64,000 bases of DNA from Bacteroidota bacterium (GTDB taxonomy: Bacteria; Bacteroidota; Bacteroidia; Bacteroidales; FEN-979). The stretch covers positions 7,189 to 71,188 of the forward strand of contig JAPLDO010000045.1 of the NCBI GenBank assembly GCA_026391715.1, read 5' to 3'. This document shows positions 1,015 to 16,570 of the stretch, one piece after another. The translations under genes were made by a program, and so were the position numbers. Position 1 is the first letter of the stretch, and each line of letters opens with the position of its first letter. The notes under the pieces are model-generated. The model did no database searches, was not told the origin of the DNA, and was given only the letters and a program-made list of their open reading frames with translations.

Positions 1015-3243
1015 CTATTTGCTGGTTAGGAAAAATCCTGTATAAATGAATTGGTAGGCGATTCCCAATTGGATCGTTAGAGGAACACTGCCGACATTGT
1101 AAGTTTGATAATAGTACTGATAAGAAGGCGAGTAAGTCGTATTTCTCGACATCCCTGTCTGTTTTCCGAATCCCTCATTCCAATTGCCTGAGGCGTTATG
1201 ATAATGGGCGTCGGAAACAATTTTACCGTTTGAAGCCCAACTTTCTCCCTCTTGAGTATGAACAAGTCCTGTTCCAATGTTAACCCAGAGGTCGTTGCCT
1301 CCGCTTCCAAATCCATTATAATATGCATTATATTTGCCCCATGCCTGTAGGTCTGCACCCACAAGGTTTGCAGGGTCGCTTGCAGCCTGCATGTTGAAAT
1401 CAACAAGGTCAAATGCAATATAGAAATATGGAGTGGTTATCATAGAACCATTCATTTGCAGCATCCCTAAAGTACTATTTGTGAAACCTACATTCATGGC
1501 ATCCGTTCCATGAGGATACAAATTACCATTTTTGTCGGATGTTAGGATATGTGGGGAATTAATGTCTCCTGACACTCCTATATTGCTGTTATATTGATAC
1601 ACGGCAAAATTGTCAGTATGCTGCCAGCCTGCCTGGTTAAAATCTGACATAAAAAGGTAACCCCATTGCCAGTTTGCCGAAAACCAACCGAACTGAAAAG
1701 TATTAGTGGCTGTTGCGCTTGTCGAAGTATTTGCCTCGGATGGGTTTGCCGGGTTGTAAAAGTAAGTTTGGACAAAGCCCTGAATGGGCGCCGTGTGTGC
1801 CCAGGGAGTATAAAAATTATTGTTGTCGCTAATCGTTGCCTGTATCTTGCCTGTGTGCCATGTCACACCATCAGATGTGCCCACGTTTCCTATTCTGTAA
1901 ACGTTCCAGGTATTGTCGGCTCCACATTTTGCAGGGTTTCCACTTGTCCAGTAGGTGTATGGTATTTGGCTCGTATATCTTGTTGCGGTTGTAGTCTTAG
2001 TAACCATATTTCCATAGTTGCTGAAATTAATGGAGATATCGTTTACAATCGGAGAATTGCCATTTGTGTAGTTCAATGGAGTAAGGACATAGCCGCACAT
2101 TACCGGGAATGGTAAGCCTAATCCTTCATATATCATATTGGCGACAAACTGTGACCTGGCAAGCGCATTTATAAAGACATTGTCCGGCGCAAGACCTGTG
2201 TTCCTGTAATTCATGTCGCTGTTAAACCTGTCCGTAGTGCGATAGTCTGATATATTGGCGACAAGATAATCCACCGCATATAAAAATGCGCTTACCTCAC
2301 TCTGTATTTTCGGGGCAAATTTGGTATTATAATCATTTGTGGCAGTTGCCCCGGTGGTATCAAGAACATTGTCAATATTCATGATCATTGTCTCGGCATT
2401 AGACTGATAATTAAGCAAATTGAGAAAATAACCTTCAAGTATCATGTAGTAATTCATTGCCATGGCGGAATCAATGATTGAGCCTTTTGCCTTAGCGCAA
2501 AGAGTTGAAGAAAATTGTGAAAGGATGCCAATGTTCCCACTTAAGTTTATCAGTCCGCTTATATTGGCAAGGTCTGTCCAAATTGTTTTGGAATTTTGTA
2601 ACGTTGCCCAGGTCTTTACGTTTGACTGAGCTTGTTGCATGGTCGCAATTGAATCAGGATTCTGCGGATTTCTTTCATAAGCTGCTGAAGCATTTTGGAA
2701 TGCCATAAAATTGGACCAGCTACCAGGAAAATCCATCCAGAAATTATTGATATCTTCCAGGGAGGGTTTGATATTTTCGTTCGATAACAAAGTCGTCATT
2801 AAATTAAGCTCGCCTAAAATGGCATTCCCATATTGGTTGACCTGTGTTGTCAAGCTGGCAATCTGGCTTGAAATATTATCTAATTCGTCGTCAATCTTTG
2901 CAAACTGATGTTCTGTGTGCTCATAAACATATACATCCCAAAGGCTTTTACCCAGGTTCTTTAGGGGATTGGGTATTTCAGGAACTTCTTCTCCAACGAG
3001 GCCGCGATGAACAAGGCGATTGGAATATGCGGGAAATCTCATGCCATGGGTTTTCTCATAATCAGTTACGAGATGCAGCGCACTCGGCACAAAAACATCT
3101 GGAACCACCGGTGAAGGCGGAACAGGCGGTGAAGGAGGCGCTGGTTCATCGTCTTTCTTTTTGCACGAAATGGCAACAATCACCATGAGCGCCATCAATA
3201 GGACAAACGGTGTAATTTTTTTAAGCAGCATTTTTGTTTTCAT
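1015..3243 (-). CDS. Large surface lipoprotein, paralog P1 of an uncharacterised family
   Basis: The ORF is open to 3348, but ATG at 3243 gives MKTKMLLKKITPFVLLMALMVIVAISCKKKDDEP (signal peptide plus lipobox Cys), followed by the Pro-rich linker PPSPPVPPSP. It is collinear with the ORFs at 6819-9044 and 14300-16570, sharing blocks GLAPDNVFINxLARxQ, YPVMCG, PWAH and FGxFSANWxWG. Confidence 0.8.
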   Translation of the reverse strand: MKTKMLLKKITPFVLLMALMVIVAISCKKKDDEPAPPSPPVPPSPVVPDVFVPSALHLVTDYEKTHGMRFPAYSNRLVHRGLVGEEVPEIPNPLKNLGKSLWDVYVYEHTEHQFAKIDDELDNISSQIASLTTQVNQYGNAILGELNLMTTLLSNENIKPSLEDINNFWMDFPGSWSNFMAFQNASAAYERNPQNPDSIATMQQAQSNVKTWATLQNSKTIWTDLANISGLINLSGNIGILSQFSSTLCAKAKGSIIDSAMAMNYYMILEGYFLNLLNYQSNAETMIMNIDNVLDTTGATATNDYNTKFAPKIQSEVSAFLYAVDYLVANISDYRTTDRFNSDMNYRNTGLAPDNVFINALARSQFVANMIYEGLGLPFPVMCGYVLTPLNYTNGNSPIVNDISINFSNYGNMVTKTTTATRYTSQIPYTYWTSGNPAKCGADNTWNVYRIGNVGTSDGVTWHTGKIQATISDNNNFYTPWAHTAPIQGFVQTYFYNPANPSEANTSTSATATNTFQFGWFSANWQWGYLFMSDFNQAGWQHTDNFAVYQYNSNIGVSGDINSPHILTSDKNGNLYPHGTDAMNVGFTNSTLGMLQMNGSMITTPYFYIAFDLVDFNMQAASDPANLVGADLQAWGKYNAYYNGFGSGGNDLWVNIGTGLVHTQEGESWASNGKIVSDAHYHNASGNWNEGFGKQTGMSRNTTYSPSYQYYYQTYNVGSVPLTIQLGIAYQFIYTGFFLTSK

Positions 3244-14299: not shown

Positions 14300-16570
14300 T
14301 TATTTTGGCGGTGAACCCATCCCTCCAAAAATCACAGTGGTATTCGGGTGGAATAGTACGGCAAGATTATAACTTGGAACAATTTGGTTGAAAAAAAGAT
14401 CAAAACCGAAATTGACTTGCATCTGAACGCCCGAGTTGAAGTTACCTCCAACGCCAATAGTAGTTGTCCAGTTCTGCGATTTGTTTACAATCTGGTAAAA
14501 GCTCGTACTGTTAATATTTGTTCCCGATTCCATATTCGGCAGTTTTTTGTAACCTACACCGCCATTGCAGTTCAGTTGAGTACCAAAATTGTACCAGCTT
14601 GCCGCCTGCCAGGCAAACCAGGCTGTATTGGACTGAATCGTACGTGCAGCCTGGATGGTATTGTACATGTTGAAAGCATATGCGACATTCCCTGCCTTCC
14701 AATTGTATGCCGGCCCATTATAAGCCATCTCTGACAGCCCAACCTGGTAGCCTCCCGAATTTACTGTAAAATATCCCTGGTAGGCTGACTGGGTGCAAGC
14801 CTCCCAGTTGCTGTTTAATCCTACCACATAAGGAGAGGTAGCAGAAAAAGTACCTTTCCCGTCGCAATTATGCATACTGTTATTGGGGTAGTTAAAAACA
14901 TTTGTTTGTAATTGTTCAGAGCACCAGGCGCCGCATTGATGCCAATTCTCATTATCATACCGTAAATACATGAAGCCCCATTTCCAGTTTGCAGAGAAAT
15001 AGCCGAACGGCATAGAGTGCACCGTATCATAAGAGGATGCCACGTCATTTAGATCCTGTGGATTGTGAAACATCACCTTCACAGTACCGCCAGGAGCTGA
15101 GGAGTGTGCCCAGGGATGGTAGGCGTCAGTGAACGAAATTGTCATTGGGTTGGTACTTTGCCAGCCCGAATCTGCCTTTCCCATTGTTCCGAAAGTGAAC
15201 ACCGACCAGTCAAAACTATAATCGCATGTGGATACATTATTGTTGACAGAGGGCCAAATCGTGTTTGGTATCCAACTTGTCACCTGTACAGCGGTGGAGC
15301 TTAACGGCTTTGTCGAATTCAGACTAAGTGATGTGGTTGACTGAGTTCCACCATCATAAGTGTAATAGTATGGGGTGATGATCTTTCCGCACATAACAGG
15401 GTATTTCAGTTTAAATCCATCATAGAGAGAGTTGGCAAGAAACTGGGCCCGTGCAAGCACGTTGATGAAGACGTTATCTGGTGCAAGTCCCGCATCGGCA
15501 TACTGCACATCGCTTGTCCACCTGGGCATGGTCCTGTATTCATCCAGGTTTGCCACAAAGAAATCTACTTCCCCAAGAAATATGCCAATTTCAGCAGTAA
15601 TAATAGGTTGAAATGCAATCCATTGGCTCTCTGCCAGGTGCAGGGTATTCGTCGAATCAATCACATTCGAACAGTTGATCAGAATATTCTCGGCTTGAAA
15701 TTGTGCGCCTACGATCCACATGAAATAGTTTTCGAGAATCTGGTAGGCTTTCATGGCGGTGGAACTGTCCATGCCGTTGGTATACTGTGCCTGGACTGAA
15801 TTAATCAACTGCCTGTTATATGTATGCAGACATCCATCATACCCTGGAGCCGGAGCGCTCAACAGGGAGGATAAACTGGTAATGAAAGTCTCCATAACTG
15901 GCAGACCTCCCCCCGGAGGAAGAATCTGAAGGTTGGCATAAGTTGGCAGATATTTGCTATTGGAAACCATAGCGGCATAATAATTTATGGAATCCGAACT
16001 GCTTCTTCTAGCAGTGACGGGGTAATATCCGAAATTCGAAGGACCAGTCGAATCCAGTGCGGTTGTCAGCGGTTCCATGGCAGTGTTGACACTTCCTACC
16101 GTGAAAAAGCTTTCCAGTTGCGTTGTTTGCAACTGTATTTCAGTGCCTATTGTGGAAATCATACCCTCTAATTGGTTCAATTGATTCTGTATTAACTTAA
16201 GATTGTTGTCAATCTCTTTGAACTCCTTTTCTGTGTGAAGGTAGTTGTGAATTTCCCACAGTGTTTTGCCAACTTCCTTAAATGGAAAGGGGATTTCTGG
16301 GTCCTCGCCGCCAACCAGTCCTCTGCCCAGCGACCGGAAATAGTGGCCTGCAAACGGCTGGTTGTGAGTAATCTCCCAATCTGTCATCAGTTGCAATGGT
16401 TTATTGGCAAAGACGTCCGGGGTTGTGATGGGCGGAGGGGTGGGGCCTGGCCCCGGTGGCGTCGGATCCGGCGTGTCATCCTTTTTCTTGCACGACATCA
16501 CCACAATGATCAATAGCGCCAGCAGGAATCCTGCCGACAGAATTTTTCTAAGTACTCTTTTTGTTTTCAT
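14300..16570 (-). CDS. Large surface lipoprotein, paralog P3 (most divergent)
   Basis: Start taken at M4 (MKTKRVLRKILSAGFLLALLIIVVMSCKKKDDTP). It shares the family blocks (GLAPDNVFINVLARAQF, YPVMCG, PWAH, FGYFSANWKWG) but has a different C-terminus. Confidence 0.8.
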   Translation of the reverse strand: MKTKRVLRKILSAGFLLALLIIVVMSCKKKDDTPDPTPPGPGPTPPPITTPDVFANKPLQLMTDWEITHNQPFAGHYFRSLGRGLVGGEDPEIPFPFKEVGKTLWEIHNYLHTEKEFKEIDNNLKLIQNQLNQLEGMISTIGTEIQLQTTQLESFFTVGSVNTAMEPLTTALDSTGPSNFGYYPVTARRSSSDSINYYAAMVSNSKYLPTYANLQILPPGGGLPVMETFITSLSSLLSAPAPGYDGCLHTYNRQLINSVQAQYTNGMDSSTAMKAYQILENYFMWIVGAQFQAENILINCSNVIDSTNTLHLAESQWIAFQPIITAEIGIFLGEVDFFVANLDEYRTMPRWTSDVQYADAGLAPDNVFINVLARAQFLANSLYDGFKLKYPVMCGKIITPYYYTYDGGTQSTTSLSLNSTKPLSSTAVQVTSWIPNTIWPSVNNNVSTCDYSFDWSVFTFGTMGKADSGWQSTNPMTISFTDAYHPWAHSSAPGGTVKVMFHNPQDLNDVASSYDTVHSMPFGYFSANWKWGFMYLRYDNENWHQCGAWCSEQLQTNVFNYPNNSMHNCDGKGTFSATSPYVVGLNSNWEACTQSAYQGYFTVNSGGYQVGLSEMAYNGPAYNWKAGNVAYAFNMYNTIQAARTIQSNTAWFAWQAASWYNFGTQLNCNGGVGYKKLPNMESGTNINSTSFYQIVNKSQNWTTTIGVGGNFNSGVQMQVNFGFDLFFNQIVPSYNLAVLFHPNTTVIFGGMGSPPK

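Follow-up and report, generated by a model that had tools for sequence, protein, structure and literature searches.

Paralogous lipoproteins among lipid and amide hydrolases in a recurrent operon of freshwater Bacteroidales

What do three large lipoproteins of an unrecognised family do among genes for lipid and amide hydrolases? The question is raised by a stretch of 64,000 nucleotides from a Bacteroidota bacterium (Bacteroidales, FEN-979; GenBank assembly GCA_026391715.1, contig JAPLDO010000045.1, positions 7,189 to 71,188), here called the window, whose own numbering is used below. A preliminary description, made by a model from the letters alone, had noted three paralogous genes, P1, P2 and P3, and suggested that they form a functional module with the hydrolases around them. 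Here 'P' refers to any protein of this family, in the window or elsewhere.

The P genes are the signature of a conserved operon of uncultured freshwater or lake Bacteroidales. We conceived that P proteins are outer-membrane, probably surface-exposed components that capture and handle substrate for a lipid utilisation locus, one that serves acyl-amide and acyl-ester lipids and is not of the Sus type. We hold this reading tentatively, at a little under an even chance. The family, its lipoprotein signals and domain layout, purifying selection, the synteny and the families and export signals of the neighbours are established by the analysis, whereas surface exposure, ligand binding, hand-over to a barrel partner and the nature of the substrate are what we infer.

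Three paralogous lipoproteins and their family

P1 (1015..3243), P2 (6819..9044) and P3 (14300..16570) are all on the minus strand and encode lipoproteins of 742, 741 and 756 aa, respectively. The three collinear paralogues of the preliminary description are real, and every motif quoted there was found again. Besides the alignment of the translations, P1 is supported by a structure model and orthologues, P2 by a tree and orthologues, and P3 by a tree and tblastn. The 64-kb window contains exactly three copies by tblastn (E = 0 to 1e-80). Over ~740 aa the identity is 64% between P1 and P2 and 33% between P1 and P3. Longer open reading frames (ORFs) of P1 and P3 begin at upstream TTG codons, but the starts at 3243, 9044 and 16570 are preferred because the MKTK start is conserved in all homologues.

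Each of the three shows a signal peptide, an (A/V)(I/M)SC lipobox with Cys27 and a Pro-rich tether, PPSPPVPPSP. In P1, the signal peptide and Cys27 are encoded at ~3163-3243 (minus strand), with the tether next. Further along, the junction block GLAPDNVFI..LAR.Q..AN..Y.G...YPVMCG is invariant across P1-P3, and the PWAH and FG.FS.NW.WG motifs were confirmed in their alignment. The lipoprotein claim holds beyond the window, as a signal peptide and lipobox Cys are the norm of the wider family: a simple regular expression finds them in 88 of the 121 full-length members, and among those listed as missed, most have S-C-(K/R)-K or a truncated start.

The residues after Cys27 had been matched to the lipoprotein export signal (LES) for the cell surface. 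The optimal LES is C-X-K-(D/E)2-X, and in C. canimorsus K is absent from +4 and shifted KDD or spacer variants are less efficiently exported (PMC5080379). In the window the sequence is KKKDDEP in P1 and P2 and KKKDDTP in P3, that is, C-K-K-K-D-D-(E/T) with K at +3, K at +4 and the acidic pair at +5/+6. The match is thus approximate: a basic-acidic motif follows Cys and K at +3 fits, but the acidic pair is one residue off.

A separate observation comes from a Ginsengibacter genome (L013), where the match at 1940-2050 is limited to residues 4-41, covering the signal peptide, lipobox, KKK-acidic motif and Pro-rich tether. Hence unrelated lipoproteins of other Bacteroidota also carry this N-terminal cassette for export and tethering.

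The family proved as unrecognised as it had first appeared. Scans of P1-P3 against Pfam, NCBIfam and PHROGs returned nothing or sub-threshold coiled-coil noise, and PDB sequence searches with a single sequence and with 33- and 76-member profiles gave no match beyond such noise. The noise lies over residues ~90-195 and consists of HA2, sigma-1, SNAP-25 and designed coiled coils. By a word-indexed search of 5.8 billion clusters, 36 relatives were found, all unnamed or 'hypothetical', those with names coming from metagenome-assembled genomes (MAGs) of Bacteroidota. An exhaustive search of 1.84 billion representatives with a hidden Markov model yielded 352 clusters at E<=1e-3 and 132 at E<=1e-30. 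The P family is rare, with its 352 clusters among so many representatives.

Related loci (numbered from L001; single family members have numbers such as P0002) were located by genome search with a three-member alignment. The genome matches are confined to Bacteroidales/Bacteroidota MAGs, including Lentimicrobiaceae and Prolixibacteraceae, and the MAG isolate names Kiruna2, ELA and Loc090907-6m point to lake samples. The most distant members share the helical domain only; their C-termini differ and are likewise unannotated, and many of them are lipoproteins with ...GCGGG-type lipoboxes. Pfam scans of 20 distant or elongated members detected no fused or bridging known domain. A homology search from an alignment of distant helical-domain relatives, run behind a word pre-filter, led again to the close family only.

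In a neighbour-joining tree, P1 and P2 come out as sisters, and both lineages include orthologues from other MAGs, while P3 falls with the L008 copy into a lineage that branches deeply. Orthologues of P1 are found in L001 (73%) and as P0002 (86%), and those of P2 in L002 (94%), L009 (88%) and L004 (83%). Because each has its own orthologues in other genomes, P1-P3 are old, maintained paralogues, and a recent tandem duplication is rejected on the same ground. The dN/dS between orthologues is 0.17-0.39 for P genes (0.17 for P2) and 0.06-0.13 for the neighbouring enzymes. The P genes are therefore real and under purifying selection, being less constrained than the enzymes.

Two further observations concern P gene evolution. 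First, when P1 and P2 are compared with their L001 and L009 orthologues, P dS is ~0.40-0.42, 2-4 times below that of CBAH (0.98-1.88) and Amidohydro_3 (1.30), two adjacent enzyme genes of the operon, between the same genomes. These values are a hint that P alleles have recently been exchanged laterally, or have recombined, between related clusters. Second, L009 (4271-6480) and L010 (5762-8043) each have a P copy broken into two ORFs that overlap or adjoin; these copies are either frameshifted pseudogenes or assembly errors.

Predicted domains and the likeness to Cry toxins

A confident AlphaFold2 model of P1 was built from a 33-member alignment (mean pLDDT 84, pTM 0.84). It consists, after the signal peptide, of the disordered Pro-rich tether, a series of ~14 helices (residues 61-374), three of which have lengths of 30-36 residues, and an all-beta part at residues 382-742, which is a pair of domains (beta-sandwich) parted at ~545. 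The helical-then-beta layout guessed from the letters is thereby confirmed. In window coordinates (minus strand), the helical domain (residues 61-374) corresponds to ~2122-3063, beta-domain 1 (377-545) to ~1609-2115 and beta-domain 2 (546-742) to ~1018-1608. No relationship between the two beta domains, such as an internal duplication, was detectable.

When the full P1 model was compared with PDB by Foldseek, the ten top matches were all chains of three-domain Cry toxins (Cry11Ba, Cry4Ba, Cry4Aa and Cry11Aa), with E of 2.6e-7 to 4e-6, probability of 0.66-0.99 and collinear alignments over 700-780 columns. No other fold match is below 1e-5. After a gap, there follow an enzyme of glycoside hydrolase (GH) family 115 at 1.7e-4 and jelly rolls of carbohydrate-binding module (CBM) types CBM16, CBM4 and CBM6 at ~2e-3. 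On the other hand, the same Cry alignments have TM-scores (TMq) of only 0.10-0.17 and a root-mean-square deviation (rmsd) of ~29 A.

The beta half (residues 376-742) was also modelled alone (pLDDT 85, pTM 0.80). Its Foldseek search gave no match below E = 1e-3; Cry11Ba appeared at E of 5e-3 to 9e-3 (probability of 0.23-0.41), ranked beneath generic CBMs. The beta domains match CBM16, CBM4, CBM61 and EphA7-LBD at E of 1e-3 to 1e-2, with TMt of 0.29-0.41 and rmsd of 7-10 A, and as modelled they weakly resemble jelly rolls of the CBM or lectin type. A viral structure library contributed only generic tail-fibre-tip or CBM-like sandwiches at scores similar to those of the CBM matches. The preliminary description had found the layout reminiscent of pore-forming or ligand-binding proteins, and this is how the fold matches turned out: three-domain Cry toxins at the top, then CBM-like lectins, both weak.

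For comparison by sequence, eight genuine Cry genes from Bacillus plasmids were used as a reference set (Cry1Ac, Cry1Ba, Cry3Aa, one of B. thuringiensis israelensis and four others). With hhalign, P profiles of 33 and 76 members gave, against these eight toxins, probabilities of 0.2-0.4% for the whole P protein and 0.0-0.2% for each of its domains. No Endotoxin_N/M/C Pfam match was found in P at E<=1. Because the TM-scores are low, and because of the beta-half and hhalign tests, the Cry resemblance is an architectural one (a helical bundle with two beta-sandwich domains) rather than an established homology or fold identity. Membership of P in the Cry family is rejected, as neither its sequence signature nor its fold at the domain level passed the tests.

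Does P attack membranes as a Cry-like protein? It could do so on the cell or on outer-membrane vesicles, where it would permeabilise or strip the membranes of prey, competitors or host, and the hydrolases would digest the released lipids. Of the alternatives to lipid capture this one is the least improbable, yet it is unlikely. P and the Cry structures of Bacillus thuringiensis (Cry4Aa, 2c9k; Cry4Ba, 1w99; Cry11Aa/Ba, 7qx6/7qyd) are alike in having a helical bundle, then two beta domains, in similar total size, and they agree in domain order and beta-part size as well as in the fold ranking described above. Conservation in P peaks at the helical end and at the junction into the first beta domain, as in Cry; residues ~90-195 have coiled-coil character; and lipase genes adjoin P genes.

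Against a Cry-like attack, in addition to the poor superposition, the low rank from the beta half and the negative sequence and profile comparisons, are the ~14 helices of P over 314 aa, not seven, in a helical region ~2x larger. None of these helices is strongly hydrophobic or transmembrane (TM)-like, the highest 19-residue Kyte-Doolittle mean outside the signal peptide being 1.2-1.5. Moreover, Cry toxins have no covalent lipid anchor, whereas P is lipid-anchored, in a Gram-negative host, and encoded in a hydrolase operon, not on a toxin plasmid. A combined version, in which P is a lipid-anchored Gram-negative structural relative of Cry toxins that strips foreign membranes and feeds lipids to the uptake-and-hydrolysis operon, is less likely still. 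If the resemblance is real, the Cry architecture would have in P its first lipid-anchored counterpart from a Gram-negative bacterium. The combined version, if true, would carry that architecture far beyond the insecticidal crystals of Firmicutes and bring a new 'predatory lipid-harvesting' type of locus.

Conservation is uneven along P. Among 76 diverse members, mean pairwise identity is 0.20 in the first helical part (61-258), 0.36 in the second (259-376), 0.30 in beta-domain 1 (377-545) and 0.17 in beta-domain 2 (546-742). In beta-domain 2, the identity of P3 to P1 and P2 is down to 15-19%, and tblastn similarity ends at ~residue 555. The invariant or near-invariant residues at 260-530 are Y266, E270, F273, Q280, N289, E316, N330, R335, D343 and R363, with the aromatic residues and His W432, W481, H483, W525 and W527.

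Such a concentration of near-invariant polar and aromatic residues at 260-530 may also mark an enzyme. P would then be a novel extracytoplasmic hydrolase or lyase working on the head group or backbone of the substrate, with its active site at the interface between the C-terminal half of the helical part and beta-domain 1. The location of the gene within an operon of hydrolases is in line with this, as are low-ranked fold matches to multidomain GH and polysaccharide lyase (PL) enzymes (GH115, xanthanase, GH43) and the analogy to those surface-lipoprotein GHs and PLs that have helical and beta-sandwich domains. However, no catalytic family is detectable by sequence, the enzyme fold matches have a low probability (0.18-0.44), and alpha/alpha-toroid enzymes do not usually show helices of 30-36 residues or coiled-coil signals. 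To keep two or three paralogues in one operon, with peripheral domains that are hypervariable, is more typical of binding proteins. A catalytic P is thus unlikely in our estimation, ranking between the two Cry-related versions.

The operon and its recurrence

The genes on the minus strand of the window are transcribed in the order TPR-LuxR, P3, orf273, CBAH, PGAP1-like, Amidohydro_3, P2, an AAA_14/DUF4143 gene with a doubtful ORF, LIP and P1. That lipid and amide hydrolases are interleaved with the P genes had been noticed before, and Pfam confirms four of them. Directly upstream of P1 is the LIP-type secretory lipase or alpha/beta hydrolase (3476..4735; PF03583, 3.4e-14), with a lipobox ...LIVAC. 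Amidohydro_3, a metal-dependent amidohydrolase (9150..10895; PF07969, 7.7e-76), has a signal peptide and is exported; it is conserved at 83-95% in L001, L002 and L005 and is also present in L025. The PGAP1-like alpha/beta-hydrolase, a lipase or esterase (10936..12186; PF07819, 1.4e-9), carries a lipobox ...IFSGC and has homologues in L002, L007 and L012.

The fourth enzyme, CBAH, is a Cys-Ntn linear-amide hydrolase of the CBAH family (12250..13359; PF02275, 1.2e-60), scoring 206 bits for a cut-off of 20.4. Its domain begins at Cys26, right after ...SETQA, and it is predicted to be periplasmic because the signal peptide ends at this nucleophile. It is below the equivalog cut-offs of bile salt hydrolase (188 vs 350) and penicillin V amidase (169 vs 600), and enzymes of these two kinds are its PDB relatives (2e-45). 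CBAH is the most constant partner of P genes, being found in 8 of 13 loci at 76-91% identity. Because all the operon enzymes have signal peptides or lipoboxes, they act outside the cytoplasm.

The first gene in the order, TPR-LuxR (16968..18722), encodes a one-component regulator according to Pfam and hydropathy. An N-terminal signal/TM segment is followed by ~360 aa of extracytoplasmic TPR, a TM helix at 420-438 and a cytoplasmic GerE/LuxR helix-turn-helix. By this layout the protein is predicted to be a membrane-spanning one-component sensor.

Between P3 and CBAH lies orf273 (13368..14189, minus strand), which encodes an exported beta-rich protein of 273 aa. It has a signal peptide, and its C-terminus reads ...GLNIQF before a short basic tail. 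Searched by itself, it has no Pfam or PDB match. At least 397 proteins belong to its family; they are ~260-280 aa long and occur in Bacteroidota, Planctomycetota, Polyangiales and Holophagales. Two of them, P0257 and P0272, exceed the gathering score of 22 for PF13557 ('MetA-pathway of phenol degradation'), with 25.5 and 25.4 bits. Proteins of COG4313 form outer-membrane channels of 12 strands and are implicated in taking up hydrophobic molecules, for example TcpY (trichlorophenol) and SphA (sphingosine) (PMC4493636). orf273 fits COG4313 in size (~270-320 aa), export, beta-barrel features and location in an operon with lipases and amidases, and is probably a distant member of the PF13557/COG4313 channel family.

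Does the gene set recur elsewhere? Thirteen loci were counted, the window and 12 related MAG loci, many of which are truncated. CBAH and TPR-LuxR each occur in eight of them, orf273 in six, Amidohydro_3 in five and PGAP1-like in four. A recurrent order is seen in more than 10 independent MAG loci: TPR-LuxR, often a ~130-aa REC protein, P, some of orf273, CBAH, PGAP1-like and Amidohydro_3, and P again. L025 and L026 repeat this order, with TPR-LuxR, orf273 and Amidohydro_3 noted in L025. The idea of a functional module with hydrolases is upheld by this synteny with CBAH, Amidohydro_3, PGAP1-like lipase and TPR-LuxR; it could have been refuted by an absence of synteny, an objection that fails because the synteny recurs in many MAGs.

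Distant family members were considered as well. P0015 follows a TetR/RND efflux operon, and P0030 is in a mobile-element-like region near a patatin phospholipase. Thus distant P members adjoin other lipid-related genes, namely a patatin phospholipase and an RND efflux operon.

Might P simply hold the enzymes together? P could be a scaffold or adhesin that organises hydrolases on the surface or on vesicles, or attaches to particles or cells, without binding substrate. A lipid anchor with a long Pro-rich tether and a coiled-coil-like segment would suit such a role. So would the varied hydrolases that P adjoins (LIP-P1, Amidohydro_3-P2, P-CBAH and P-PGAP1-like), and the signal peptide and leader that LIP shares with P2. 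However, CBAH and Amidohydro_3, with ordinary signal peptides, are predicted to be periplasmic and so cannot dock on a surface protein, and across the loci there is no strict pairing of P lineages with particular enzymes. We take this to be the least likely of the alternatives.

The lipid-capture reading can be put as a course of events. The membrane-spanning TPR-LuxR sensor would control the operon. P would capture, at the cell surface, amphiphilic substrates whose acyl chains are linked by amide and ester bonds; candidates are lipopeptides, lipid-A-like material, and N-acyl or ceramide-like lipids. The conserved core, made of the second helical half and beta-domain 1, would hold the lipid and pass it on, and the variable modules, made of the first helical half and beta-domain 2, would set the target specificity of each paralogue. 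Lipases and amidases would strip acyl chains, the hydrophobic products would cross the outer membrane through the orf273 barrel, and the periplasmic CBAH and Amidohydro_3 would complete hydrolysis. In favour of this reading are the lipobox and LES-like motif usual in the family, the confident model with its weakly CBM- or lectin-like beta domains, the recurrent gene order, the export of all the enzymes and the link of orf273 to channels for hydrophobic compounds. The lipid-related neighbours of distant members, the several deep P lineages maintained in different genomes, the higher identity of the core than of the peripheral modules, and dN/dS values of functional genes under weaker constraint than the enzymes point the same way.

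To our knowledge, nutrient capture by Bacteroidota is understood almost entirely through SusC/SusD loci for glycans and vitamins. No SusC-like transporter or SusD is found in the window cluster, the 12 related loci or L022-L026. A SusD-like reading, or one as a polysaccharide utilisation locus, is rejected, since no locus has SusC or SusD. P is like SusD-like proteins, SusE/F-type surface glycan-binding proteins (SGBPs) and BtuG/BtuH in its lipobox with a LES-like acidic motif, flexible tether and CBM-like modules (PMC5080379). Co-operonic exported hydrolases, a dedicated sensor-regulator and several paralogues per locus are also features of lipoproteins in Bacteroidota utilisation loci, and it is to these surface lipoproteins that P comes closest in function. 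Unlike Sus-type systems, the P loci have neither a SusC-like TonB-dependent transporter nor SusD, the P fold is neither the TPR fold of SusD nor that of an all-beta SGBP, the partner of P is a small COG4313-like barrel, and the neighbours are lipases and amidases, not glycoside hydrolases.

COG4313 systems (Pput2725, TcpY, SphA) are similar to the orf273 side of the operon in size, signal peptide and weak profile similarity, and they belong to operons for the catabolism of hydrophobic molecules. One of them, SphA from the sphingosine regulon of P. aeruginosa, handles sphingosine, which is the product of an amide-lipid (ceramide) hydrolase (PMC4493636). As described, however, these systems include no partner lipoprotein of the P kind. 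A literature search found no relevant description of a Cry-like Bacteroidota lipoprotein or of a locus that joins CBAH with a lipoprotein. The P protein family itself is new, and its combination with a COG4313-like barrel and lipid/amide hydrolases was not found described in the literature.

Lipid-presenting activators such as saposins or the GM2 activator, which are helical, take lipids out of membranes and offer them to soluble amidases and other hydrolases; the CBAH superfamily, to which the operon amidase belongs, also includes acid ceramidase. The likeness of these activators to P is a functional analogy only; size and architecture are completely different.

Several findings weigh against lipid capture by P. 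Some distant family members have no hydrolase context, and orf273 is absent from L003 and L005. orf273 and its five orthologues have no Pfam match, staying below every threshold, and for a 27-member orf273 profile the only relevant PDB match is the weak one to 4rl8, a PF13557-family protein, at E = 0.077. The conserved polar residues E270, Q280, N289, E316, N330, D343, R363 and H483 fit an enzyme equally well. Finally, the LES-like motif of P is placed one residue further from Cys than the optimum.

If P does capture lipids, anoxic freshwater Bacteroidales would have in this operon a utilisation locus of a new type, serving acylated lipids, and a function would be given to a 'dark' family of ~350 clusters. 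Three paralogue lineages with a conserved core and hypervariable modules also make a natural system to study specificity.

Leaders of the operon genes and other features of the window

Directly 5' of the P2 start, at 9045..9100 on the minus strand, there is a conserved leader with short repeats of the AACCTTAA type. Similar leaders precede P3 (16571-16625) and LIP (4736-4775), also on the minus strand. The P2, P3 and LIP leaders are composed of AACCTTAA or CACTTAA units and end in ...AAATTCC-ATGAAAACAAAA. The same leader motif is found before the P genes of L002, L011, L012 and L024, although P is only ~30% identical there. From its sequence and position, the leader may be a regulator-binding site or a translation-initiation element.

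LIP shares with P2 not only the leader but also the first 10 residues of the signal peptide, MKTKNLLRKI. At the DNA level these are copies of repeat family D3 (72% identity), 4668-4769 being matched with 8977-9078 and 16503-16604. This suggests that 5' ends may have been exchanged or duplicated among genes of the operon.

In a second subset of P genes (L001, L009, L008, L010 and L012), the start is preceded, at a distance of 30-60 nt, by tandem repeats of (G)TGAAATAG. The repeats have a period of 8, with four copies in L001, and are located at ~2640-2680 in L001 and ~7370-7410 in L009. They may serve as a direct-repeat operator on which the adjacent REC or LuxR-type regulators act. Rfam gave no match over 1-20000 of the window. 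In a promoter/terminator scan, which does not cover Bacteroidota promoters, the counts were near or below chance.

Among the genes located between P2 and LIP, the AAA_14 + DUF4143 ATPase (5162..6520, minus strand) was identified by Pfam, and a doubtful 125-aa ORF occupies 4753-5130. A homologue of the ATPase, 36% identical, is found in L002 (4306-5622, between orf273 and CBAH), and the other loci have none. The ATPase gene is probably an unrelated inserted gene outside the module, and the copies in the window and L002 look like independent insertions of a mobile or selfish gene.

Convergent to P1 is a gene for a DUF5777 'membrane bound beta barrel' protein (19-912, plus strand). It is probably unrelated to the module because it is not kept beside P genes in other loci.

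The stretches 19314-25111 and 25151-26923 lie on the other side of the cluster. Genes divergent from the cluster encode here a hybrid PAS histidine kinase, B12-binding and URO-D (MtaA-like) proteins and a DUF1638-containing histidine kinase. This set looks like a sensory module of the corrinoid-methyltransferase type, and it is followed by a Transposase_29 gene on the minus strand.

Further along, at 30276-41856, an OEP/HlyD efflux pair (30276-32725) and two ABC-2 permease genes (39509-41856) flank a Type I restriction-modification island. Within the island are hsdM (32781-34373), a gene for a Bro-N protein (34373-35215), hsdS (35445-36704), a gene for a RhuM-family protein (36688-37731) and hsdR (37734-39503). 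The island appears to split an efflux operon.

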